DNA of 62,182 nt, from contig JBAYUI010000003.1 in NCBI GenBank assembly GCA_041675165.1, positions 1 to 62,182 on the forward strand. The letters run 5' to 3'. The DNA comes from Parcubacteria group bacterium. GTDB taxonomy: Bacteria > Patescibacteriota > Minisyncoccia > Moranbacterales > UBA2206. The notes under the pieces are model-generated. The model searched no databases. It was not told the origin of the DNA and saw nothing but the letters and a program-made list of their open reading frames with translations. Shown piece by piece: positions 3,001 to 58,724 of the stretch (its first letter is position 1; every line of letters begins with the position of its first letter). A program made the position numbers and the translations under genes.

Positions 3001-3467
3001 GTGAAAAACACACCGGGGCTTCTTATAATCTGACTGACCACCACTCTTTCCACTCCGTTTATGATGAATGTGCCTCGCTCGGTCATCAGCGGGAAATCGC
3101 CCAGATACACCTCTTGCTCTTTCACCTCTCCGGTCTTTTTGATAATCAGTTGGACTTTGCAGCGTAAAGGCGCTTCATAAGAGATATTTTTGCTCTTGGC
3201 CAGCACTTCATCATATTTCGGTTCGTCCAGATAATATTCGCCAAAAGACAATTCCAAATCTTTTTCCGTGAAATCCGCAATCGGGTTGACTTCTTGCAAA
3301 AGTTCCTTGAGGCCTTTCTCCAAAAACCAATCGTATGAATCAGTCTGCGATTCGATCAAGTTCGGCAGAGACACCATCGACATGGTTTTGAAAAATTTTC
3401 GCTTGGACAAGGACGATTCTGAGCTGAAAATTTTCTTAACTTTCAACTTTTTTTCAATTTTAGTCAT
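63..3467 (-). CDS. rpoB: DNA-directed RNA polymerase subunit beta
   Basis: 1134 aa; hallmark motifs GTFIINGVERVVVSQ, GRICPVETPEGPNIGL, GDKLAGRHGNKGV, GGQRFGEMEVWALEGY. Confidence 0.99.
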   Translation of the reverse strand: MTKIEKKLKVKKIFSSESSLSKRKFFKTMSMVSLPNLIESQTDSYDWFLEKGLKELLQEVNPIADFTEKDLELSFGEYYLDEPKYDEVLAKSKNISYEAPLRCKVQLIIKKTGEVKEQEVYLGDFPLMTERGTFIINGVERVVVSQIIRSPGVFFTMNYVKGKKLFGAKIIPNRGAWLELETDFDGAIFVKIDRKRKIAITSLLRAFGYSNDKSLTEIFKDIDNGETRYIEKTIEKDATKSQGEGYKEVYKRIRPGDLATESNAKSVVDSMFFSFEKYDFGGVGRYRLNQRLDIEMPDDEAHRILTKEDLNLIIKEIIRLNNDPMSMADDIDHLGNRRVRSVGELIQNKLRVGFARTVRNIKDRMSTCDLLTVVPGQLVNSRPIAAAIKEFFSSSQLSQFMDQVNPLAELEHKRRISAMGPGGLTRERAGFEVRDVHPSHYGRICPVETPEGPNIGLVGHLATYTRVNSYGFLETPYLKIYHEVKNEKELLIGKILDEKVGEFSAGTKVDENMAEKISKIKEKKTVKIKPWISQEIDYLNATKEDRKNIASSGIDVDDDGNIMAEILGARVKSQATEIEASKLDYIDVSAKQCISVATALIPFLEHDDANRALMGSNMQRQAVSCVKPESPIVGTGIEDKAAADSGQVVISKAAGEIVEVDADHIIVKEEAPAGAKKPYIKREYRLQTFVKSNAFTSMNQIPRVAKGQVVKKGQLLADGASTDNGELSLGQNIMVAFIPWEGSNYEDAIIISEKLVQDDRYSSIHIEDFSIDVRDTKLGPEVVTRDIPNIGEERLKNLDETGIIRIGAEVSSGDILVGKISPKGEGDLTSEERLLRAIFGEKSRDVKDSSLYLPHGEYGKVVDIKIFSREQGDKLSTGVIQQIQVSVAQLKKISVGDKLAGRHGNKGVISRVAPVEDMPYLPDGTPVDMILNPLGVASRMNIGQILETHLGWAGLKLGYKAATAPLDGVTEDQIRAELKKAGLPETGKIKLINGRTGDFFDNESTVGVMYVMKLHHLVDDKIHMRSIGPYSLITQQPLGGKAQFGGQRFGEMEVWALEGYGAAYTLQEMLTIKSDDVMGRSKAYESIIKGEVIKSPNIPASFHVLVSELKGLGLNVELTGAKSEEEGEKEEQNI

Positions 3468-9368: not shown

Positions 9369-9401
9369 CACTGTCTTTTATATATCGCAATTATAAATAG
9401 A

Positions 9402-9686
9402 CTATTTGATCGCTTCTTTCAAGGCCTTGCCAGCCGTAAATTTAGGCACGGTCATGGCCGGGATAGTGATTTGTTCTTTGGTCTGAGGGTTGATGCCGAT
9501 ACGCGCCGCGCGGGCTGAAGCCCGGAAAGTCCCAAAGCCTGTAAAAGTAACTTTTTCTCCGTTCTTAAGAGCCTTGGTGATTTCATCCGTCATCGTATCA
9601 ATCATCAGTTCGATGTCTTTTTTCGATAGATCAGTTTTTTCGGCGATCTTAGACACAAGAGCGTCTTTGTTTATGTTTTTTGCCAT
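9402..9686 (-). CDS. hup: DNA-binding protein HU
   Basis: VTFTGFGTF, RIGINPQT, VPKFTAGKALK; SD ggaaggtga before MAKN. Confidence 0.96.
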   Translation of the reverse strand: MAKNINKDALVSKIAEKTDLSKKDIELMIDTMTDEITKALKNGEKVTFTGFGTFRASARAARIGINPQTKEQITIPAMTVPKFTAGKALKEAIK

Positions 9687-13132: not shown

Positions 13133-13726
13133 TTACTTTATGATCTTATCCACCACCCCATATTTCTTGGCTTCGTCGGCGCTCATAAAATAGTCGCGCT
13201 CGGCGTCACGTTCCACCTTGGCCAAAGCGTTGCCGGTGTGTTTGGAGAGAATTTCATTCAGTTTCTTCTTGATGCTGAGGATGTGGCGGGCGTGGATGTC
13301 GATGTCGGTGGCTTGGCCTTGGGTGCCGCCCATCACTTGGTGGATCATCACTTCGCCGTTGGGCAAAATCATCCGTTTGCCTTTTTCACCGGCGGCGAGA
13401 AGCAACGCCGCGGCGGAAGCAGCCATGCCGATGCAGATTGTCGACACATCCGGCTTCACGTGCTGCATCGTGTCATAGATGGCCAGAGCCGACGTCACTT
13501 GCCCGCCAGGAGAATTGATGTAAATCTTGATATCTTCCTTGGCATTCTGAGAGGCCAGAAAAAGCAACTGAGCGATGATCGAATTGGCCACAGCGTCATC
13601 GATCGGTCCGCCCAAAAAAATGATCCGATCTTTCAAAAGACGCGAATAAATATCATAGGCGCGCTCGCCATAGGAAGTTTTTTCAATGACAGTGGGGATT
13701 AGGTATTGATTAGTGATGTTATTCAT
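13133..13726 (-). CDS. clpP: ATP-dependent Clp protease proteolytic subunit
   Basis: [39 protein letters not shown]. Confidence 0.98.
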
Positions 13727-13738
13727 AAGATAATAATA

Positions 13739-13850
13739 AAATCCAAATTACAAAATCTAAATGTCAAATCAAATCCAAAGTTCAAATGTCAAAATTTTGG
13801 ATTTTAGATTTTGAGCTTTATTTGTCATTTGGATTTTGACATTTAGTTTT
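13739..13850. repeat. Inverted array of degenerate 7-mers (aatccaa/aatctaa/aatgtca and complements)
   Basis: Left half is tandem 7-mers, right half their reverse complements; between tig and clpP. Confidence 0.8.
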
Positions 13851-13873
13851 TAAACTGCAACAACCAGCGATGA

Positions 13874-15160
13874 CTATAGCTTTTCAAGGTATTCAAACAC
13901 CTTCTCATTCTCCAAAATCCCTTTGCTATAAGTATACAATCTCTCCATATCGATATTCTTCTCCATATCTTTCACGCCTTTGTAATATTGCAAAGTCTTA
14001 TTCATCTCCGCTTCCACTTCCGTGGTGTCGGCCACGATGTCTTGCATCTGGGCCGCTTCTTTGAGCACCAAAGCGCTCATCACTCGTTTCACTGCTTGCG
14101 GCTCCCAATCTTTTCTCAACTCCGCTTTGGTCTTTTTGAGCTGTTCCAGATATTGGTCCAGATTCATCCCCATCGAAGACAGCTGGTGTTCCATTTCATC
14201 CTCCATCTTTCGCACCTCTTCAGTCAAAAGAATTTCTGGCAGATCGCTTTTGGTGTGCTTGATAATCTCATCGAGATAGCTCGCGCGCCTCTCTTCTTTG
14301 ATCTTATGCTCATTCTCATGTTCCATTCCTTCGCGCATATTCCGCTTGAGATCTTCCAAGTCTTTGAATTTGCCGAGGCCCGCCGCGAATTCATCGGTCA
14401 GTTCGGGTGTTTTCCGTTCTTGCACCAGATTCATCTTGACCTTAAATGCCGCCGGTTTTCCCGCCAAATCTTTCTTGTGATAACTTTCCGGAAAAGACAA
14501 CTCGAATTCTTTTTCATCCCCTTCCCTCATACCGATCACTTGCTCTTCAAAACCGGGAATGAACACTCCTCGCCCGATGATCAAATTATGTTTTTTACTG
14601 GTGCCGTTTTCAATCGGAACTCCGCCCACCAGCACTTGGAAATCGATCTCCACATTATCATTCTTCCGCGCCTCACGCATCACCGTCACCAGTTGCACTC
14701 GGCTATTGGCCAACTTTTCCAGTTCCAATTCCAATTCTTCGTCCGCCACTTTCGGAGTCTTATTTTTGAACTCTTCATTTATTTTCTTGATACCTTTCAC
14801 ATAGCTTTCTTTGACCTCGACTTTCGGCATCACCGCTGCGATGGCTTTGTATTTCAGCTCTTTCCCCTCTTCTCCTTCCAAGACTTCTATTTTAGGACTA
14901 CCAATCACGTCCAATTTTTCTTTGGTGATGATGTCGATATAGCTGGCTTTCACAGCTTTTTCCGCGGCCACATTGAAAATAGCGGCCTTGCCAATTTTTT
15001 GTTCCACCAAATTACGCGGAGCTTTCCCCGGACGGAAGCCGGCAATCTTTATCTCTTCCGACGCTTCCGCCGCGGCAACGTCTAAATATTTTTCCCAATC
15101 CGCGGGGGCGATACTGACTTCAAACTCAATCTGCGATTTTGGTAATTTCTTGATATCCAT
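13874..15160 (-). CDS. tig: Trigger factor
   Basis: IAGFRPGKAP ribosome-binding motif; FKBP-like FIPGFEEQVIGM. Confidence 0.97.
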   Translation of the reverse strand: MDIKKLPKSQIEFEVSIAPADWEKYLDVAAAEASEEIKIAGFRPGKAPRNLVEQKIGKAAIFNVAAEKAVKASYIDIITKEKLDVIGSPKIEVLEGEEGKELKYKAIAAVMPKVEVKESYVKGIKKINEEFKNKTPKVADEELELELEKLANSRVQLVTVMREARKNDNVEIDFQVLVGGVPIENGTSKKHNLIIGRGVFIPGFEEQVIGMREGDEKEFELSFPESYHKKDLAGKPAAFKVKMNLVQERKTPELTDEFAAGLGKFKDLEDLKRNMREGMEHENEHKIKEERRASYLDEIIKHTKSDLPEILLTEEVRKMEDEMEHQLSSMGMNLDQYLEQLKKTKAELRKDWEPQAVKRVMSALVLKEAAQMQDIVADTTEVEAEMNKTLQYYKGVKDMEKNIDMERLYTYSKGILENEKVFEYLEKL

Positions 15161-29040: not shown

Positions 29041-29763
29041 TTATAGGGATTTAAGTTGTCTAACGGCATAATCGTATATCTTCTTATCAATTTCATACCC
29101 AATATACCGCCCGCCACGCCTCAGCACATGACAACCCAATTTCGCCGTTCCCATGAAAGGATCAAGCACCGTATCACCCTTTTTGAAATTACTCAGCATC
29201 AGGAATTTATCAATTATTTCCTGAGGAAATGGGCACGGATGCCTTTCCGTTAATTGTTCCATGCGATGATCTGGATATTTGGAATAATATATTTCTCCAT
29301 TTTTGAAATCGCAAGATTCTTTCTTGAAAATCAACCACTGCAAACAATTTGAATGATTCCCATCCGCACCAACCAAATTGAAATATTTTCCAAATTCTCC
29401 AATTGGATTTTCAATATAGTCACTTGCATCCATAAAATCAATATGCCGCGCCCCTAGAAACAACCCCGATTCAATGCAAAATGATTGAATCAGGCCAGCC
29501 AACTGCACGAAATACCCATCGCAAACAATCACATCAGCTGCTTCAATGATTGCGACTCCGTTCCGATTGAGAACGCGTGAGCACTCCGCCATGACATTTT
29601 TCATAACCTTAGAATATTGGCTGAGAGAATTTTTATCATGATATTCTCCAAAAATAAGGCCAACATTAAAAGGAATTGATGTGATTATAATATCCACGGA
29701 GTTACTTTCAACTTCTATCATTCTCTCAGAAGATTTATTGTATATAATCCAATTCTCTTTCAT
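29041..29763 (-). CDS. Beta-class N4-C/N6-A DNA methyltransferase-like protein with atypical motif IV (SIPF)
   Basis: VDIIITSIPFN, HPCPFP, VLDPFMGTA, YIGYEID in beta order; SD aagga before MKENW. Confidence 0.8.
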   Translation of the reverse strand: MKENWIIYNKSSERMIEVESNSVDIIITSIPFNVGLIFGEYHDKNSLSQYSKVMKNVMAECSRVLNRNGVAIIEAADVIVCDGYFVQLAGLIQSFCIESGLFLGARHIDFMDASDYIENPIGEFGKYFNLVGADGNHSNCLQWLIFKKESCDFKNGEIYYSKYPDHRMEQLTERHPCPFPQEIIDKFLMLSNFKKGDTVLDPFMGTAKLGCHVLRRGGRYIGYEIDKKIYDYAVRQLKSL

Positions 29764-29909
29764 AGCACCGTCCTTTTTCAGTTGATTTTTAAACAACTCT
29801 CTTTTCCCATCCCAACAAGCCATTATACCTGAAAATAAACTACTTGTCCATGATGTGGTTGTTTTATTATTTATTTCTAGTATATCTATGCCATTTTATC
29901 TCTTATTTA

Positions 29910-30765: not shown

Positions 30766-31614
30766 ATGAACATTGGTTGTCATGTATCAATTGCAGGAGG
30801 AATTTTCAACGCTCCAGAGCGTGCGGCCGACCTTGGTGCGGAATGCTTCCAAATCTTCACCCGCTCCCCGCAGGGTGGCAAAGCGCCAGAATTAACGCCT
30901 GAAGTTTTAGAAAAATTTTCCGCTGAAATGAAAAAACATAAGCTGGAAAATTTTGTCGTACACACGCCCTATTACATCAACTTCGTTTCCGCCAACAATC
31001 GCGTGCGCTATGGCTCAGTTTCGGTCGTGCGTGACGAACTGGAACGCGCTTCCCTTCTCGGCGCCAGATTTGTTATGACCCATCTGGGCAGTGCCGGCGA
31101 CTTGGACGAAAAAGAGGCCACCGCCAAAACCGCCGAGATGATCGCCAAAACTCTGGACGGCTATACTGGCTCGACCGAACTCCTCATCGAAAATGCGGCT
31201 GGTGCCGGTCATATCATGGGCGCCACATTTTCACAAATTGCGGAAATCATTAGGCTCGTCAACCACCCAAAACTAAATGGGATTTGTATGGACACCCAAC
31301 ACTCCTTCGCCTCCGGCTACGATTGGCGCAAACTTAATGATGTACGGACAGGTCGCGACCTGTCCCTCCTTGAACAAATCGACCAAGAAATCGGCTTAAA
31401 AAAAATAAAACTCATCCACGCCAACGATTCCCTGACTGAATGCGGCTCCAAAAAGGACCGCCACGCCCACATCGGCGAAGGACTCATCGGTGCTGATGCT
31501 TTTCAAAATATAGTCGCCTTTGCCGAAAAGAATAATATCGATATGATTTTGGAAACGGAACATGGCAAAGTGGTGGAAGATATTGAACTGCTAAAATCTT
31601 TTCGCGCAAAATAA
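30766..31614 (+). CDS. nfo: Endonuclease IV
   Basis: IGCHVSIAGG, FQIFTRSPQ, VHTPYYIN, LIENAAG, CMDTQHSFASGY, IHANDS, DRHAHIGEG, ILET. Confidence 0.96.
   Translation: MNIGCHVSIAGGIFNAPERAADLGAECFQIFTRSPQGGKAPELTPEVLEKFSAEMKKHKLENFVVHTPYYINFVSANNRVRYGSVSVVRDELERASLLGARFVMTHLGSAGDLDEKEATAKTAEMIAKTLDGYTGSTELLIENAAGAGHIMGATFSQIAEIIRLVNHPKLNGICMDTQHSFASGYDWRKLNDVRTGRDLSLLEQIDQEIGLKKIKLIHANDSLTECGSKKDRHAHIGEGLIGADAFQNIVAFAEKNNIDMILETEHGKVVEDIELLKSFRAK
31342..31369. repeat. REP-like palindrome inside nfo
   Basis: gtac-ggacaggtcg|cgacctgtcc-ctcc; perfect 20-bp core at 31346-31365; encodes VRTGRDLSL. Confidence 0.65.
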
Positions 31615-32175
31615 TTTTTCTATCAGTTGTGGCAGGCGCTGACTGCTGAATCTTTTTAGATATTTTTTGATCTTATCTTTGTCTAACAACTTCAAATTCA
31701 TTTCTGCCGCGTCAAATTTGGCATAGCCATTCAGCGACAGATAAGCCAGATCCAAAAAAGCTTTCTCTGGTTCAGCGACTAAATAATTTTCTTTAAGCAT
31801 GTAGCCAAAATATAAATCTTTTTGTAGGTGGCGATAATTGATAATCTTATCCCCGATTTCTAAAGTTTTGGCCCGTTTCACAGTGACCAGCGTTAAGGCA
31901 TATGTCTTTTGGCTCAAAATATCATCTTGCCCTAAGACCCACTCTAAAGATAAATAACTCGGCGCATAAATTTCCAACGCCAATTTCGGCCAATCAACCT
32001 TGGCTTTATCCAGGCAATAATAGCCTTTTGCTAACGGACTTAATTTTCCAGCCTTAACCAAGCGACTGACCGTCACGCGTAAACTCGCGTCGTCCAGCTG
32101 CGCAATCTTTCGCAGATCAGAAAAAGTAAAATAGCTTTTCTGGATCTTATTCAGTTGTTTTTCCAAGTTGCTCAT
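31591..32175 (-). CDS. abiEi: Type IV TA antitoxin, AbiEi-like (wHTH)
   Basis: YFTFSDL...LRVTVSRLVKAGKL..LAKGYY; PSYLSLEWVL; AEPEKAFLD. Confidence 0.82.
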   Translation of the reverse strand: MSNLEKQLNKIQKSYFTFSDLRKIAQLDDASLRVTVSRLVKAGKLSPLAKGYYCLDKAKVDWPKLALEIYAPSYLSLEWVLGQDDILSQKTYALTLVTVKRAKTLEIGDKIINYRHLQKDLYFGYMLKENYLVAEPEKAFLDLAYLSLNGYAKFDAAEMNLKLLDKDKIKKYLKRFSSQRLPQLIEKLFCAKRF

Positions 32176-32842
32176 ACAATTGTCTTATGACTGGATAATA
32201 TTTCTTTGGCAAAAAAACTTTCAGCTCATTTTCAAATTCTCTTTTTCGGTACTGTGGTGTTTTTTTTGGCATCACAAAATTTTCTCGCAAAGTCTGGGCA
32301 ATATACCACAAGTCAAAAATGTCTCGCCCCTTCTTGCGTCCCGCCAGAGCTGCTTCTTTCAATCGTTGTAATTCTTTAAGTGTCGGCACGAGTAGCAGCG
32401 GTTCCGCCGCACTCATCGGACTTTTCACCAGCGCTAATTCTGTTTCTATTTTTGGTTTATGCTCAGGCTTATGCGCCTCAATCTTAATCGAAAACGCATG
32501 CTTCAGTTTTTCATCCTTGAGATTGATTAGCGCGAACATTGTCTGACGTTTATCCTTGATATCTTTCAATGTCCAGCTATCTTGTCTTTCCATCAAGCTG
32601 GCTATAAATTTTCCAAATTCAGCAAAGCTCGTTTTTTTCATCACTAATAAATCGATATCTTCTGAAAATCTGGGCGAACCATACACCAGGCGCAAAGCTG
32701 TGCCGCCATAAAAAACCCACTTGGCGCTCAGTTTATCCTTGGCGAACTCAGCCAAAATCTCCATTTCCGCCTCTTCCCTCAGGATCTGGTCGCGCGCAAT
32801 CCCCAATTCCCGAATATATTCATTTAATTGATTTTCGTTCAT
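32147..32842 (-). CDS. abiEii: Type IV TA toxin, AbiEii-like nucleotidyltransferase
   Basis: FYGGTALRLVYGSPRFSEDIDL, K..AL.GR..GRDIFDLW; overlaps abiEi. Confidence 0.88.
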   Translation of the reverse strand: MNENQLNEYIRELGIARDQILREEAEMEILAEFAKDKLSAKWVFYGGTALRLVYGSPRFSEDIDLLVMKKTSFAEFGKFIASLMERQDSWTLKDIKDKRQTMFALINLKDEKLKHAFSIKIEAHKPEHKPKIETELALVKSPMSAAEPLLLVPTLKELQRLKEAALAGRKKGRDIFDLWYIAQTLRENFVMPKKTPQYRKREFENELKVFLPKKYYPVIRQLYEQLGKTTE

Positions 32843-35640: not shown

Positions 35641-35691
35641 AATCGCTGGAAAGCGATTTTATTTTAAACTAAATACTAGATACTATTCAAG

Positions 35692-35774
35692 TACCCGGGG
35701 CGAGACTCGAACTCGCATGACCTTACGGTCGAGGGATTTTAAGTCCCTTGTGTCTACCATTCCACCACCCGGGC
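35692..35774 (-). tRNA. tRNA-Leu(TAA)
   Basis: Cloverleaf with variable arm; AGGGA-CTTAAAA-TCCCT; no intron. Confidence 0.96.
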
Positions 35775-35781
35775 AAAATTG

Positions 35782-35855
35782 AGGTCGCGGTGGGATTTGC
35801 ACCCACGAAATAGCGGTTTTGCAGACCGCCGCGTTAGCTACTTCGCCACACGACC
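35782..35855 (-). tRNA. tRNA-Cys(GCA)
   Basis: GCGGT-CTGCAAA-ACCGC; U discriminator; 5' end overlapped by the LAGLIDADG ORF. Confidence 0.93.
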
Positions 35856-36571
35856 TTATGCTTTTTTATTATTTTTTTCACCTCCTCATCGCTTCTTTTC
35901 GGCCTCAAAATAAAATATTCACAAAATTTTACATATTTTCTTCTTAGAAATTCTAACCCCTTTTTGCCGTAGATAAATTTAAAAATCTTTATACTATCCT
36001 CAGTCGAAAAAGCCAACATAAAAGATTTACATCCGTTATAAACTTTTTCTTGCTTAGTGTTTATAATATTTTTTGTTTTTTTAGCCAACGCTTCTAAAAA
36101 TTCTTTACTACCGCAAGTAAACACGACCCTTAGCCCCTTTATTATCTCCTCATCATCTTTATTCCTCCCCTTTCTTAATAATACACAGCCATCCCCATCA
36201 AAATATCCCAAAATAAAACTACTTAAATATTTTTTCGGTACATCTGGAAATTTTATTGTTAAAGATTTTTTCGGGAATAATCCAAGCCTCGTTAAATCAT
36301 CATACAAGACATGACTTCCGATTCTTAGAAGATATTGTTTTTGTCTTTTACTGTTAGGATGTTCCGTTTCAATTATATTATGTTCGGAAGATAGCCACTT
36401 TTTTATTCTTAATATATTTTCTCTGTCTACACTAGAAACCCTGACATATTTACCACGCAGATAACTAGCATCTTCAAGACTGCCATCAGCATATAAATAC
36501 CCCAAAACGTAGGCCATCTTATGCGACCATCTTTTGAAAAAATTTTCATTCACAGCATACTTTATTCCCAT
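35834..36571 (-). CDS. Free-standing double-motif LAGLIDADG endonuclease-like protein
   Basis: AYVLGYLYADGS and SFILGYFDGDGC motifs; AT-rich. Confidence 0.9.
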   Translation of the reverse strand: MGIKYAVNENFFKRWSHKMAYVLGYLYADGSLEDASYLRGKYVRVSSVDRENILRIKKWLSSEHNIIETEHPNSKRQKQYLLRIGSHVLYDDLTRLGLFPKKSLTIKFPDVPKKYLSSFILGYFDGDGCVLLRKGRNKDDEEIIKGLRVVFTCGSKEFLEALAKKTKNIINTKQEKVYNGCKSFMLAFSTEDSIKIFKFIYGKKGLEFLRRKYVKFCEYFILRPKRSDEEVKKIIKKHKVVWRSS

Positions 36572-46578: not shown

Positions 46579-47265
46579 TTAGCTATAATCAGATTTTAAA
46601 CCATCTATCCAGCCGATAACTTTAAAAAATAATTTTACATCATTTATTCTAATGTGAACAGTGCCGTGAGTCAAGCTGTCTTCATCTCTTTTGCCTTGAC
46701 TTGATTTGCTTACCGAACAACACGTTTTGATGAATTGGTCTTGTGGAATATTTGTCAGGCTAGACCAGTACGTCACTGACTTTTCAATATCCACGTTTTT
46801 ATGCGCTATCAGCTGGACTTTTATCTTATCTTCTTTAATTTTTAAAAATTTTTTGAAAAATCTTACCATGATCACTACCATCTTCGGATCAGAATTGGTA
46901 AAATCTATCGCTTTCCATTTACTGCCTTGTGCGCCCTTCTTATATCCTTCCGCCCAATATAAAGAAATTCCAACCAAAAATAATTTATCTTTTTTTAAGA
47001 TAGAAAACTCTTTTTTTGCCAGGGAGCGAATTTTAGCTGCCCTTTCCTTGGCCAATTTCGTCTGGTTCCTATTTCTATTTATGAGTCCCTTGACACTACC
47101 TTCAAAAACTCTGCTTGCCAATCTTTTTTTCGCTTTCTGAGAAATTTCGATACCTGCCAACCAATAGCTCAATGTGCTTTTAGGAACTTTCAGCCTATCT
47201 CCTATTTCATTATAGCTGTACCCTTGTTTTCTTAGTTTTACAGCTTGCAGTTTATCTTTTCTCAT
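46579..47265 (-). CDS. HTH + degenerate LAGLIDADG-like protein
   Basis: N-terminal HTH (LRKQGYSYNEI..RLKVPKSTLSYW); GISLYWAEG; FTNSDP..V; stop 2 nt before tRNA-Gly. Confidence 0.75.
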   Translation of the reverse strand: MRKDKLQAVKLRKQGYSYNEIGDRLKVPKSTLSYWLAGIEISQKAKKRLASRVFEGSVKGLINRNRNQTKLAKERAAKIRSLAKKEFSILKKDKLFLVGISLYWAEGYKKGAQGSKWKAIDFTNSDPKMVVIMVRFFKKFLKIKEDKIKVQLIAHKNVDIEKSVTYWSSLTNIPQDQFIKTCCSVSKSSQGKRDEDSLTHGTVHIRINDVKLFFKVIGWIDGLKSDYS

Positions 47266-47324
47266 ATAAATTGAACCTACGATATATATACCATAATTAT
47301 ATCATAGGTTCAATTTTTGTACAG

Positions 47325-47641
47325 TGGTGCCGGGTCCCAGGATTGAACTGGGGACACAAGGATTTTCCTTGATAATTTTTCTTGGATTTCCCCAAGGATC
47401 GGACTATTTCATCATCCTGAAATAAAATCAGGAGTTGGGCGCTATTGCAAGATTATTGTTGGGACTCACTTGCTAGTCTCTACACTTTCCTCAAAACTTA
47501 AACCCTCTGAGGCTTAGCTCGAGATTACCTTATTGTTTTTCAACAACTTAGGCTTCCTCGAATTCACCCAATTTTCATTTCCAAATTACTCTGGAACGGA
47601 CCGAAAATCAGTCCTCTGCTCTACCACTGAGCTAACCCGGC
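47325..47641 (-). tRNA. tRNA-Phe(GAA), intron-containing (exons 47610-47641 and 47325-47367)
   Basis: Joined exons give GAGGA-CT|GAAAA-TCCTT and a full cloverleaf with CCA. Confidence 0.93.
47368..47609 (-). ncRNA. Group I self-splicing intron (242 nt, no ORF) after U33 of tRNA-Phe
   Basis: P1 GGACU/GGUCC with U.G at the splice site; terminal G; P3 UUGGGUG/CGCCCAA; P7 GACUA/UAGUC; P2, P8 and P9 hairpins. Confidence 0.9.
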
Positions 47642-47647
47642 CCTTAT

Positions 47648-47745
47648 CATATTATCATTTTAACATATTAGCATTTTAGCAAACTAGGCTATGATTGCTA
47701 AAAGTTTTTTGTTAATATGTTAAAATGTTAGTATGTTAAAATGCT
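47648..47745. repeat. Inverted array of degenerate 8-mers (ttaacata/ttagcatt vs atgttaaa)
   Basis: Between tRNA-Phe and tRNA-Val; a related half-array (atgctaac/atgctaaa/atgttaac) is at 6850-6885. Confidence 0.65.
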
Positions 47746-54762: not shown

Positions 54763-55056
54763 TTATCCTAGAATCGCTTTCAACCTTCGCACTTCTTCGG
54801 CCAACGCCCCCGTATTTTCATATTCACCATGATGACGCGTATCCTCACCATAGGTTTCCTTTTTCGCGTCCAGATGGATATTGATCTTCATATCCATGCC
54901 ACTCATTTTAACATACATATGGAACCGCGGATAACCTGAAGCACCAAATGGTTTCACAAAACTCATTTCCTCCCCTTCGTTCCGCTGAAAAGAATAGCCG
55001 AGCCTACGCAGCGCGTTAACAGGATTTTCTTTGATATTTTTAACTTCAATTACCAT
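54763..55056 (-). CDS. Conserved CPR-type hypothetical protein
   Basis: LRRLGYS, SGYPRFHMY, NIHLD...Y....HHGEY; follows folD. Confidence 0.6.
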   Translation of the reverse strand: MVIEVKNIKENPVNALRRLGYSFQRNEGEEMSFVKPFGASGYPRFHMYVKMSGMDMKINIHLDAKKETYGEDTRHHGEYENTGALAEEVRRLKAILG

Positions 55057-55912
55057 ATTTTCGTATTTCGTAAAACATCTTAGCCGCCGCAACTGTGTTT
55101 TTCATCAGCATCGCAATCGTCATCGGTCCCACCCCGCCCGGCACCGGTGTAATAGCACCCGCCACCTCGGAAACTTTTTCAAAATCAACATCGCCCGCCA
55201 ACTTCCCATCCTCGCCACGGTTGATTCCGACATCCACAACAACTGCTCCTTGTTTTATCATATCTGCCGTAATTAGTCCAGCCCGACCAACCGCCGCAAC
55301 CAAGATATCTGCCTGTTTAGCGACTACGGCCAAGTTTTTGGTTTTCGAATGAGCGATCGTCACCGTTGCATTTTCCTTGAGCATCATAACAGCCAAAGGC
55401 TTTCCTACGATATTGCTTCTTCCGACAATAACCACGTTTTTCCCCGAAATTTCAATTTCATATCTTTTCAGCATTTCCATTATTCCAGCCGGCGTGCAAG
55501 GCAAAAATATAGGCTCGCCCAAAAACATCCGCCCCACATTTTCTGGATGGAAACAATCGACGTCTTTTTTCGGAGAAATAGCCGAAATAATTTTTTGTGG
55601 ATCGAGGTGCGCCGGCAAAGGCAACTGCACTAGGATTCCATGGATTTTCTCATCCGCGTTCAATTTCGCAATCAAAGCCAGAATTTCTGCTTCTTTGACA
55701 TCTTCATCCAATCGATGCACTTCAGAAAAAATCCCCAGACTCTCGCAAGCTCGTTCTTTGTTGCGCACATAGATCTGAGAAGCCGCGCTTTTCCCTGCCA
55801 GAATCACTGCCAATCCGGGAACAACTCCTTCTTTTTTCATTTCTGAAATTTCCAGCCTGAGTTCCACCCTCATCTCTTCCGCTATTTTTTTCCCATCCAA
55901 AATTTTTATCAT
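55046..55912 (-). CDS. folD: Methylenetetrahydrofolate dehydrogenase/cyclohydrolase
   Basis: ILDGKKIA, HGILVQLPLP, KDVDCFHP, PCTPAG, GRSNIVGKP, PVPGGVGPMT. Confidence 0.98.
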   Translation of the reverse strand: MIKILDGKKIAEEMRVELRLEISEMKKEGVVPGLAVILAGKSAASQIYVRNKERACESLGIFSEVHRLDEDVKEAEILALIAKLNADEKIHGILVQLPLPAHLDPQKIISAISPKKDVDCFHPENVGRMFLGEPIFLPCTPAGIMEMLKRYEIEISGKNVVIVGRSNIVGKPLAVMMLKENATVTIAHSKTKNLAVVAKQADILVAAVGRAGLITADMIKQGAVVVDVGINRGEDGKLAGDVDFEKVSEVAGAITPVPGGVGPMTIAMLMKNTVAAAKMFYEIRKYGN

Positions 55913-55926
55913 TTTTTTATTATTAT

Positions 55927-56072
55927 TTTATTGCTAGTGATTTTTTAAAAAATTCCTGTCTGAGAAAGTTTATTTTTTCCAAAATTATTTTGTTCAGCCG
56001 TCGGTCGTCAAAATTATTTTGGATAAAAAATAAGCTTTCGAGTTAATTTTTTAAAAAATCACTAGCAATAAA
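55927..56072. repeat. 146-nt palindromic element E1 between fhs and folD
   Basis: Perfect 28-bp terminal inverted repeat (55927-55954 / 56045-56072), inner stem, and loop motifs shared with E2. Confidence 0.85.
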
Positions 56073-56074
56073 GC

Positions 56075-57745
56075 TTAAAACAAGCCGGAAATTTTCCCTT
56101 CCTCGTTCACATCGATCTTTTCCGCCGCCGGAACTTTTGGTAAACCGGGCATCGTCATAATATCGCCCGCCAAAGCTACGATGAATCCCGCTCCATTGGA
56201 AATGCGCAACTCCGAAATCGTCAGCGTGAAACCTTTCGGCCGCCCGAGCAGTTTCGGATTGTCCGACAGAGAATATTGGGTCTTCGCGATACAGATCGGC
56301 AATTTATCCAATTTATCTTGCTGCAATTTTTCCATTTGTCTCACCGCCTTCGTGCTAAATTCCACTTTGCTCGCGCCATAGACATGCTGCGCGATCGCCT
56401 CTACCTTATTTTTGATATGTTGAGTTTCGCTGTAGGTGAATTTGAAATTGGAACGCTTCTTTTCCAAAGTTTCCAAAACCGCGCGCGCCAAGTCTTCTCC
56501 GCCCGCCCCGCCTTTTTCCCAGACCCGTGACACCGCGCACACCGCGCCTGATTTTTTAACCGCTTCTTCTAAAAATTTTAATTCCTTTTTCGTATCTGTT
56601 GGAAAAACATTGATGGCCACCACCACGGGCACGCCAAAACGTTTCAGGTTCTCAATATGTTTTTCCAAATTAGGCATTCCTCTTTTCAAAAAGACTGTGC
56701 TCGGCAGAGGCAAAGACTCCTTATCCATCCCGCCATTATACTTCAAGGCGCGCACCGTGGCAGTGAGCACCACTGCGTCCGGCTTGAGTTTAGCCGCGCG
56801 GCATTTAATGTTGAAAAATTTTTCCGCCCCGAGATCCGCCCCGAACCCCGCTTCCGTGATAAGATAGTCTCCCAGTTTCAAGCCATAGCGGGTCGCTAGA
56901 ACACTATTACATCCATGCGCGATATTGGCAAATGGTCCGCCATGCACCAAAACCGGCGTGTGTTCCAAAGTTTGCACCAAATTCGGCTTGATCGCATCTT
57001 TGAGCAATGTCGCCAGCGCTCCGATCACTTTCAATTCACGCGCAAACACAGGCTTGTTCTCAAAATTATATCCGACAATGATTTTCTCCAATCTTTTTTT
57101 GAGATCATTGATATTTTCCGCGAGGCACAGTATGGCCATAATCTCCGAAGCCACCGTAATGTTGAAACCGTCCTCCCGCGGCACGCCGTTAGTTTTTCCA
57201 CCGAGGCCCACCACAATTTCCCGCAATGCCCGGTCATTCAGATCCATTGCGCGCTTCCAAAGGATCCTTTGTGGATCAATTCCAAGAGCATTGCCATGAA
57301 AAATATGATTATCAATCACCGCCGAAAGCAAATTATTAGCCGTGGTAATGGCGTGCAGGTCCCCCGTGAAATGCAGATTGATATCCTCCATCGGCATCAC
57401 TTGTGAAAATCCGCCGCCGGCCGCGCCGCCTTTCATCCCCATACACGGCCCGAGTGACGGTTCCCGGATGGCCAGCATGGCCTTTTTCCCCAGTCTCCTC
57501 ATCGCCATCGCGAGACCAATAGAAGTCGTCGTCTTGCCCTCACCGGCTGGCGTCGGATTGATGGCCGTGACCAAAATCAGTTTTCCGTCTTTATTCTTTT
57601 TGATCCGCTCCCACAGCTCCGGCTTGAGTTTTGCCTTATACTCTCCATATAACTCCAATTCTTTTTCATCTATTCCAGCCATACCAGCAAGTTCTTTAAT
57701 ATTCTTCATCTTCGCCCCCTGTGCAATTTCAATATCAGTCTTCAT
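56075..57745 (-). CDS. fhs: Formate--tetrahydrofolate ligase
   Basis: [64 protein letters not shown]. Confidence 0.98.
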
Positions 57746-57795
57746 AAAATTATTATTATAAGATTACATTTCACCCCTCTTCCCTATTCCTCTAA

Positions 57796-57938
57796 GTGTT
57801 TTGTAAAATTTATTTTTTAATTCCTGTTTGAGAGCGCGGATTTTTTCTAAAATTTTCCGTACCAGCCGTCGACTTATGAAAATTTTAGCAAAAAAATGCG
57901 CGCTCGAGTTCAATTAAAAAATAAATTTTACAAAACAC
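57796..57938. repeat. 143-nt palindromic element E2 upstream of fhs
   Basis: Perfect 27-bp terminal inverted repeat (57796-57822 / 57912-57938); cctgtttgag, cagccgtcg and tcgagtt motifs as in E1. Confidence 0.85.
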
Positions 57939-57941
57939 GAT

Positions 57942-58589
57942 TCACACCACCTCCCGCCACACCTTCCTCAAAATATCTTTTACTTTTTCATTTTGGCGCA
58001 ATTCCCGCACGCTCGCCATAATCCCATCCACCTCTTTCAGTAGTCCTGGTTGCTTGATCAGAAAAGTCCTGATGCTTTTGTCATCCGGTTTCTTTTCGAT
58101 GTATCTCGCAATCATGGCATACCACAGATAGAAGCTGGCTGGATCAAAATCCAATCCGGTTTCGGCCAATGGCGGATTGTTGAAATAATTGACCAGCTTC
58201 TCCCAATTATTATATTCGTCATAGACCAACTCGTCTTCCAGATCTTTCGCAGGCTGATTATATACATCCGTCGTATGAGGCAATTCGTAAAACTTATATT
58301 CATTCAAAATATCCTCCCGGCGCATATCACAATACAGATGGAACTTCCAGCCGGCGCGAAAAGATGACAACCCGGCAAAATTCAGATCGAGCGGATCAAA
58401 ACACAAATGTGTGTCCCGTCTTTTTATCGTGGCATCAATCCGGCGCATATCCGGGAAAACACAGCCCAACAAAAATTCTTCCTTGTCTAACCGGATTGCA
58501 CATTCAACTTTCCCAGCTTCCAGCTGCTCAAAATATCTTTTAGCATAGACAATATGTGAAATTTGCGAAGCCATAAACTTTTCTTCCAT
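57942..58589 (-). CDS. Hypothetical putative zinc-binding hydrolase
   Basis: N-terminal HIVYA, LLGCVFPD, GWKFHLYCD pattern recalls phospholipase C/HD-like metalloproteins; start uncertain. Confidence 0.55.
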   Translation of the reverse strand: MEEKFMASQISHIVYAKRYFEQLEAGKVECAIRLDKEEFLLGCVFPDMRRIDATIKRRDTHLCFDPLDLNFAGLSSFRAGWKFHLYCDMRREDILNEYKFYELPHTTDVYNQPAKDLEDELVYDEYNNWEKLVNYFNNPPLAETGLDFDPASFYLWYAMIARYIEKKPDDKSIRTFLIKQPGLLKEVDGIMASVRELRQNEKVKDILRKVWREVV

Positions 58590-58724
58590 TATAGCACACC
58601 GTCTCATCCACTGAGTTCAAGAATTAATTGACAGATCGACCATTCCTTGCTGTCATATAATGCCCCAAACAAAAAGCCAAAACCCCTCGCGGTTCTGGCT
58701 TTTTTTATTTTCACAAAGACATTT

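Follow-up and report, generated by a model that had tools for sequence, protein, structure and literature searches.

Two long hairpins beside fhs and folD belong to a small family of palindromic elements in Moranbacteria-like bacteria

Introduction

Genomes of the Candidate Phyla Radiation (CPR, or Patescibacteria) are tiny and tightly packed, and descriptions of non-coding or repeat elements in them are, to our knowledge, few so far. The 62,182-nucleotide (nt) stretch analyzed here (the window; contig JBAYUI010000003.1 of assembly GCA_041675165.1, from a Parcubacteria group bacterium) contains two long palindromes, E1 and E2, that lie in front of two one-carbon folate genes, folD and fhs. What are they? 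A first-pass annotation of the window had proposed either an undescribed cis-regulatory RNA for folate genes or a mobile or processing element of folded single-stranded DNA (ssDNA) or RNA that inserts after stop codons. Here, we find that E1 and E2 are members of a small, undescribed family of ~145-nt hairpins confined to a Moranbacteria-like CPR clade. The folate proposal did not survive, and the second proposal was largely borne out.

Results

E1 and E2 share unpaired motifs within unrelated stems

Both ~145-nt palindromes were present with the anatomy first described for them. Perfect outer stems (P1) of 28 and 27 base pairs (bp) enclose inner stems (P2 and P3), the stem sequences of the two elements are mutually unrelated, and unpaired motifs are conserved at matching positions: CCTGTYTGA, CAGCCGTCG and TCGAGTT (Table 1). 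The apical motif CAGCCGTCG has only two occurrences in the 62 kb, one in each element, and two or more were seen in 0 of 100 shuffles. Fold z-scores for E1 and E2 were -11.9 and -9.4 on the + strand and -10.8 and -10.4 on the - strand, and an equally good fold arose in 0 of 200 shuffles. The placement just past stop codons was likewise as annotated. On the coding (-) strand, E1 begins 2 nt past the stop codon of fhs (TTA at 56075-56077 on +), and 14 nt lie between its end and the folD ATG (55912). For E2 the distances are 3 nt from the stop of a 221-amino-acid (aa) gene (57942-57944) and 50 nt to the fhs ATG (57745). Nor did either element resemble a tetrahydrofolate (THF) or ZTP riboswitch, as the annotation had noted: an Rfam search of the window (cmscan, gathering thresholds) gave no match, and when 55800-58100 was searched at E<=10 the hits were limited to generic long-hairpin miRNA models that scored far below threshold, with THF and ZTP both absent.

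A covariance model of the family recovers 18 copies

Motif-anchored scans of genome and metagenome collections, contig look-ups and a covariance model (R1) together recovered 18 copies of the element from ~10 Moranbacteria-like genomes or metagenome contigs. Several of these copies are orthologous to each other, and the set represents ~8 independent sites. Between 8 and 62 kb per genome was examined, with one to three copies seen per genome by the motif pattern; a scan of the window with the model found only E1 and E2. The taxonomic assignment of the copies comes from record titles, one of which reads Bdellovibrionales. This element-bearing contig (L131/L133), labelled a Bdellovibrionales metagenome-assembled genome, is AT-rich and carries a member of a family otherwise restricted to CPR bacteria, which suggests a binning error. 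BLAST against 72,556 plasmids yielded no family match, phage BLAST and a motif scan of IMG/VR yielded no real ones, and we found nothing relevant in the literature on Moranbacteria or Patescibacteria repeats and RNA motifs.

Family members are 118-148 nt long and share one architecture. P1 is 25-29 bp and unconstrained in sequence. An asymmetric internal loop follows, with CCTGTYTGA on its 5' side and GAGTT(N) on its 3' side, and leads into P2 (~14 bp), a 2-nt bulge, P3 (~14 bp, starting CYAAAATT) and the apical loop CAGCCGTCGA. Two core subtypes were distinguished, alpha (E1 type) and beta (E2 type). In the model alignment, 97% of the cells are paired and 38 of the 53 pairs show changes on both sides, including all 25 pairs of P1. 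Not one of 500 shuffles scored as high, and sliding the partners lowered pairing to 40-64%. Model R1 can be used to annotate these elements.

Table 1 Features of E1, E2 and their neighbours in the window
Feature	Position	Strand	Remarks
E1, complete element, alpha core	55927-56072	+	Folds better on +, its forward strand, which is antisense to fhs and folD; fold -57.9 kcal/mol; model score 134.7 bits
E1 P1, 5' arm	55927-55954	+	Pairs with 56045-56072 (28 nt, 100% complementary, 90 nt in between); sequence varies among copies, pairing retained
E1 5' internal-loop motif CCTGTCTGA	55955-55963	+	CCTGTYTGA; invariant except for two C/T positions
E1 P2 and P3, 5' arms	55964-55992	+	Inner stems 55964-55978/56025-56039 and 55979-55992/56009-56022
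E1 apical loop	55993-56008	+	CAGCCGTCG at 55995-56003
E1 P3 and P2, 3' arms	56009-56039	+	2-nt bulge at 56023-56024
E1 3' internal-loop motif GAGTT	56040-56044	+	Invariant; TCGAGTT at 56038-56044
E1 P1, 3' arm	56045-56072	+	Ends 2 nt from the fhs stop codon
E2, complete element, beta core	57796-57938	+	Same orientation as E1; fold -53.9 kcal/mol; model score 137.2 bits
E2 P1 arms	57796-57822/57912-57938	+	27 nt, 100% complementary, 89 nt in between
E2 5' internal-loop motif CCTGTTTGA	57823-57831	+	CCTGTYTGA
E2 inner stems	57832-57846/57890-57905; 57847-57857/57878-57888	+	
E2 apical-loop motif CAGCCGTCG	57863-57871	+	
E2 3' internal-loop motif GAGTT	57906-57910	+	TCGAGTT at 57904-57910
folD	55046-55912	-	PF00763/PF02882; downstream of E1; context only
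fhs (formate-tetrahydrofolate ligase)	56075-57745	-	PF01268; between E2 and E1; context only
221-aa gene	57942-58607	-	Weak Zn_dep_PLPC match; stop codon 3 nt from E2; context only

The elements are insertions into short spacers and turn over

The fhs/folD spacers of relatives L230-L234, L226, L227 and others are free of elements and only 11-65 nt long. Since most relatives have such short, empty spacers, sequence comparison shows that the elements are insertions. Their presence is patchy among relatives whose Fhs is 81-94% identical to that of the window. L125 (Fhs 90% identical) carries the same pair as the window, a beta element at the E2 site and an alpha element at the E1 site. L221 (94%) has none at the E2 site and a truncated beta core within a P1 at the E1 site, and L222 (91%) has an alpha core within an E2-type P1 at the E2 site and none at the E1 site; alpha and beta cores have thus moved between the neighbouring sites. 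Only arm remnants are left at both sites of L140 (86%). L224 (86%) has, next to the old E2 3' arm, an alpha copy whose P1 is new, together with a 5'-arm remnant at the E1 site, and L225 (81%) retains both elements with their invariant motifs decayed. Further afield, L127 contains a truncated copy (3205-3240, +; the 5' motif CTCCTGTTTGAGAA and a P2 arm) head-to-head with a full copy at 3257-3403, and the two copies of L058 have near-identical cores and different distal stems. These insertions into 11-65-nt spacers, their turnover and the truncated remnants match much of what the first-pass annotation had suggested for a folded element entering after stop codons.

Insertion can alter a neighbouring gene. 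In most relatives, as in the window, folD overlaps the gene that follows it or is separated from it by a few nt. The L058 copy that follows folD extends over its last three codons, provides its stop codon and takes the place of the C-terminus found in relatives. At the same folD/next-gene junction, the sister contig L136 has a different, TACGAAT-rich repeat. This ~71-nt repeat, which contains the perfect palindrome TACGAATTCGTA, was found at 4546-4616 of L058, 6328-6398 of L136 (as the reverse complement) and 5935-6000 of L230; it recurs in spacers around fhs and folD in the UBA2206 lineage, and the folD open reading frame (ORF) of L136 extends into it. Its role could be that of an operator, or it could be one more small repeat family.

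Read by eye, the flanks of the copies showed no consistent direct repeats or target-site duplications and no conserved terminal inverted repeats. We also considered a pre-existing terminator hairpin as the insertion target, prompted by an 11-bp stem in L140. This stem corresponds to the distal part of the E2 P1, and it is more likely a deletion remnant because in L224 and L125 the part retained is seen to be the old 3' arm; MAFFT alignments that addressed this question were ambiguous. For the copy between an ABC exporter gene and proS, there was no clean empty site, the closest ABC homologues being at most 68% identical.

The core of surviving elements is strongly constrained

Between the window and L125, four-fold degenerate sites of fhs differ at 51%. 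Over the same comparison, P1 differs at 16-25%, with substitutions and even indels compensated in both arms, P2 and P3 differ at 3-10%, and the loops differ at 0% apart from three variable positions (two C/T positions in the 5' motif and the base after GAGTT). The core is thus 93-100% identical in this comparison. Because the orthologous elements differ far less than the four-fold sites, those that survive are strongly constrained, with a core at the level expected of a stable RNA. The motif decay in L225 and the repeated deletions show that this constraint can lapse. Such a pattern would be expected if a trans-acting partner were lost.

The motif strand folds better and is antisense to its neighbours

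We then asked which strand folds. On the strand that carries the motifs (the forward strand), transition-type mismatches in the stems are G·T in 22 cases and A·C in 4 (17 versus 4 as distinct events). In the predicted fold, an invariant G is the partner of one of the two variable C/T loop positions (C-G in 7 copies, U-G in 7), and the second of these positions, placed by eye, lies opposite another invariant G. The forward strand also has the more stable fold in 13 of the 18 copies (mean difference 3.9 kcal/mol, p=0.008). Mutational bias was considered as the source of the G·T excess and discarded: polarized changes at four-fold sites of fhs point the opposite way, and the commonest forward-strand transition, T>C, gives A·C.

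The forward strand is antisense to its neighbours at all 6-7 independent co-directional sites, with its 3' end abutting the stop codon. GC skew is negative on the + strand throughout the window, a + strand gene block included, and for this reason the forward strand is probably the leading-strand template. The strand exposed on the lagging-strand template is the other one. The flanks contained no consistent promoter or terminator that an antisense RNA could use; we found only inconsistent AT-rich -10-like boxes, many of which are reverse-complemented start-codon contexts. The evolutionary signature is RNA-like, yet the sense transcript is the only RNA certain to exist.

Copies lie beside unrelated genes

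Six sites were found without reference to fhs. Four have a downstream gene: ABC exporter/proS (L002, L129), response regulator/aspS (L132), a site before a DUF167 gene whose upstream gene lies beyond the contig end (L135), and folD/97-aa gene (the A copy of L058). Two lie between convergent genes and so have no downstream gene: GNAT and a 379-aa gene (L127), and UbiA and KsgA (L131). With one exception, copies start 0-13 nt past a stop codon, as the first-pass annotation would have it, and the distance to the next start is 9-15 nt at ~6 sites. Orientation is the same throughout, and none of the ~8 sites with readable flanks is a spacer between divergent genes.

The surroundings of fhs and folD account for 3 of the ~8 independent sites, in two distant lineages, and this clustering is the one observation that speaks for a riboswitch or other cis-regulatory RNA of one-carbon folate genes. 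The genes downstream of copies include fhs, folD, proS, aspS, the DUF167 gene and the 97-aa ORF, and the favoured strand is antisense to the folate genes themselves. Most Moranbacteria fhs-folD loci have no element at all, and close relatives (Fhs 94%, 91% and 86% identical) lack one or both copies with fhs-folD intact. A TATAAT-like box, seen by eye, lies between E2 and fhs, and no THF-I, THF-II or ZTP model matched. Building the model, scanning with it and tabulating the downstream genes, the check laid out with the first-pass annotation, thus found copies scattered before unrelated genes. This was the outcome set beforehand as decisive against a folate riboswitch; we reject that reading and give it next to no credence, and a false riboswitch candidate for folate metabolism is thereby removed. 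The proposed link to fhs and folD stands as a clustering of sites, for which local duplication or exchange is as good an explanation as function. Duplication or exchange in permissive spacers is the simplest reading; a locus-specific role is possible, though none of our findings requires it.

The same slots accept other small repeats. In addition to the TACGAAT-rich repeat, a different ~140-nt hairpin lies directly after the fhs stop in L228 (11675-11814), in a genome that also carries the L129 element. It has a perfect, GC-richer 21-bp stem around an unrelated 95-nt interior and folds at -62 kcal/mol on the antisense strand versus -52 on the other.

Discussion

Which known systems do these elements resemble? 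In position and dynamics, the nearest are the intergenic palindromes of the repetitive extragenic palindromic (REP), REPIN and BIME type and of the enterobacterial repetitive intergenic consensus (ERIC) type (PMC3733652, PMC3116915, PMC2229807). REPs are palindromes just past ORFs in unidirectional and convergent spacers, never divergent ones (PMC3733652), and the same placement was found at all of the ~8 sites with readable flanks (for L135 the upstream gene is beyond the contig end). REPINs are hairpin-forming units of up to ~100 nt (PMC3116915); our elements likewise form hairpins and persist vertically, and their apical motif contains a CGTC tetranucleotide. The REP unit, however, is defined as a 20-40-nt palindrome with an unpaired GTAG or CGTC tag at one end of its stem (PMC3733652), whereas here a single ~145-nt hairpin replaces the short unit or doublet, the conserved unpaired motifs are internal and apical with no such tag at the stem foot, the stems are not conserved in sequence and copies are few. 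The sequence examined contained no RAYT gene, and the window contained no Y1_Tnp domain. RAYT biochemistry offers a precedent for recognition of conserved unpaired tag nucleotides on a folded single strand.

ERIC (also called IRU) and other bacterial repeats that resemble miniature inverted-repeat transposable elements (MITEs), such as Correia and RUP, are, like ours, imperfect palindromes of ~100-150 bp in transcribed intergenic regions, variably present between related genomes; they are conserved above neutral expectation and can add stop codons or alter gene ends (PMC2229807). Those families differ in being conserved over the whole element, terminal repeats included, where ours are conserved in the loops and inner core. 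TA target duplications and known transposase partners are features of Correia and RUP that were not seen here; ERIC is variable in orientation and our elements are fixed; and a classical MITE, as a derivative of a DDE transposon, would not be expected to have outer stems unrelated among copies and flanks without a consistent direct repeat. A looser analogy is the ssoA single-strand origin, a long, orientation-dependent ssDNA hairpin with variable stems, a conserved RSB (TTATGCCGAGAAAATTT) and an apical CS-6 (TAGCGT) (PMC4598088). Variable stems with conserved internal and apical unpaired motifs are common to both; the motifs themselves have no more in common than GAGA(A) and AGC-GT, probably by chance, the plasmid search was empty, and our elements are chromosomal, among housekeeping genes, with no Rep gene or double-strand origin. 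Because they lack the GTAG/CGTC foot tag, conserved terminal repeats, target duplications and the R box of integron attC sites, we keep the family apart from REP/REPIN, ERIC/MITE and attC alike.

We tentatively favour, short of real confidence, a REP/REPIN/ERIC-like palindromic element that is derived by insertion and maintained by selection, with loops that are probably a protein recognition surface. The elements entered very short spacers directly past stop codons, between co-directional or convergent genes, and were later duplicated, exchanged between neighbouring sites, truncated and deleted. In the proposed model, the forward strand (CCTGTYTGA...CAGCCGTCG...GAGTT), antisense to the neighbouring genes, would fold into the long hairpin. 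Its outer stem would only have to pair, and the asymmetric internal loop and the apical loop would present a fixed recognition surface to a putative trans-acting protein that both mobilizes and maintains the element.

Several points weigh against this REP-like reading. Mobilization is something we infer: we found no transposase, recombinase or reverse transcriptase in the window or adjoining any copy, and target-site duplications and conserved terminal inverted repeats were not found. Classical REP and MITE families number tens to hundreds of copies, and here there are one to three per genome by the motif pattern in the 8-62 kb examined. At orthologous sites the core is conserved at a near-tRNA level, which would be expected of a functional RNA gene more than of selfish DNA, and the swapping of E1 and E2 cores could reflect gene conversion instead of transposition. 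The favoured strand, as the presumed leading-strand template, does not fit ssDNA transposition of the IS200/IS605 type, and the flanks again show no consistent promoter or terminator for an antisense RNA.

The non-selfish alternative is a strand-specific functional nucleic acid of a new class in CPR bacteria, which we regard as possible but doubtful. It could be a structured RNA of ~90 nt that is cut out of a long processing stem and lies antisense to the neighbouring genes, or a folded single-strand DNA site for a dedicated recombinase or HUH enzyme; in both forms the asymmetric loop and the apical loop would be read by a putative protein. As an independent small RNA gene, antisense to its neighbours, the element would have a ~90-nt functional core (P2, P3 and the loops), with P1, which would only have to pair, as the stem that closes it or directs its processing (by RNase III, for example). 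Invariant loops, covarying stems, G·U-type intermediates on one strand only and core conservation far above neutral expectation all speak for such a gene. Long perfect stems around stable RNAs do occur in this clade, since a tRNA-Phe lies within a perfect 19-bp flanking stem in L143 (9372-9486). We nevertheless consider a free-standing RNA gene unlikely. No consistent promoter lies upstream or terminator downstream on that strand, and it would be odd for such a gene to be antisense in every co-directional context; of the 13 tRNA genes of the window, 12 are on the - strand, which carries about two thirds of the ORFs. Repeated loss in close relatives, the decayed motifs of L225, near-perfect helices of ~60 bp, unusual for bacterial RNAs, and the lack of an Rfam match point the same way.

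The ssDNA form, a folded recombination site resembling attC in which a recombinase reads the antisense strand and fhs and folD are exchangeable modules, is very unlikely. It would explain why elements start at or a few nt from an ORF stop, why the strand that folds runs antisense to the ORF (and lies on the presumed leading-strand template), and why structure is conserved above sequence, with variable stems and asymmetric unpaired features. The size fits (118-148 nt, compared with 57-141 nt for attC), cores have been exchanged between neighbouring sites, and the layouts alternate ORF and site (221aa-E2-fhs-E1-folD in the window, fhs-B-folD-A in L058). Yet the order PLPC-like gene, fhs, folD and 97-aa gene is kept across Moranbacteria with or without elements, and the flanked genes are syntenic housekeeping genes. 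There are two or three sites at most and no cassette arrays, and no integrase was found in the window. The R''/R' pairing (RYYYAAC/GTTRRRY) was not seen, although no attC covariance model search was made; an unpaired 6-7/7 match to RYYYAAC at the P1/loop junction is one-sided, with no GTT partner.

Alternatively, the element might act in the sense mRNA, as an intercistronic or 3'-untranslated-region hairpin of the ERIC/REP kind, co-transcribed with its flanking genes, with a role in mRNA stability, RNase III processing or translational insulation of adjacent cistrons. We think this quite unlikely, even though the sense transcript almost certainly exists. A fixed orientation relative to transcription fits a role at the RNA level, the elements span the interval from the stop codon (0-13 nt) to the next start (9-15 nt at ~6 sites), and REPs are likewise mostly downstream of ORFs in unidirectional and convergent spacers (PMC3733652). 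Read on the sense strand, though, the transition mismatches are A·C (22) and not G·U (4), the fold is the less stable one, the conserved loops give no recognizable motif, and by eye the flanks contain no terminating U-tract in either direction. An intrinsic terminator was rejected for the same reason, the U-tract being missing on both strands in most copies. Inspection by eye fitted the loops to none of the hammerhead core (CUGANGA/GAA), K-turn, sarcin-ricin/loop E, T-box specifier loop, CsrA GGA site or SECIS. The R/Y positions of the loop do not follow the amino acid of the downstream aminoacyl-tRNA synthetase gene, and GGA is lost in five copies. A retron msr-msd was discarded too, as the flanking genes encode no reverse transcriptase domain, though a few of the ORFs there lack a Pfam match.

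What sets the family apart is an unusual trio of properties: conservation is limited to the shape and three short unpaired motifs, the core is near-constant where silent sites are near saturation, and sister lineages have repeatedly deleted the element. If the partner protein is found, the family would provide a handle on how small mobile or structured modules are recognized as folded single strands in CPR bacteria, and the family bears on whether REPIN-like "domesticated replicators" exist outside Proteobacteria. Were the elements instead functional nucleic acids, insertional spread would be the way in which a host-useful module gets distributed.

Other features of the window and its relatives

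The remaining gene content of the window is housekeeping, with a few accessory genes. A group I intron (RF00028, 82.7 bits, 47380-47619) interrupts the anticodon loop of a tRNA-Phe(GAA) on the - strand (47320-47660), and ARAGORN called this tRNA only after in-silico removal of the intron. Just downstream is a 228-aa HTH_23 ORF (46579-47265), and just upstream is an AT-rich inverted-repeat region of ~100 nt (47644-47743). The L143 tRNA-Phe with the 19-bp flanking stem is intron-less (9398-9470), and its duplex has a predicted stability of -38 kcal/mol. Flanking processing stems are not general to tRNAs of the clade, as none of the other 28 tRNAs checked has one.

An ORF for a LAGLIDADG-type homing endonuclease (35834-36571, -) lies beside tRNA-Cys (35781-35855), with a slight overlap, and tRNA-Leu (35691-35774). 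Accessory genes stand amid housekeeping genes at 29041-29823 and 31591-32842; they encode an N6/N4 DNA methylase and an AbiEii-family toxin (32147-32842), the latter adjoining a 194-aa ORF without a Pfam match. An AT-rich palindromic or repetitive tract of ~115 nt (13737-13852; 62-nt overlapping arms, 74% complementary) lies in the spacer that separates clpP (13133-13726) from the trigger factor gene (13874-15160). Finally, another long hairpin was seen in L141 (1006-1135), with 38-nt arms that are 82% complementary, 54 nt between them and an interior unrelated to the E1/E2 family.

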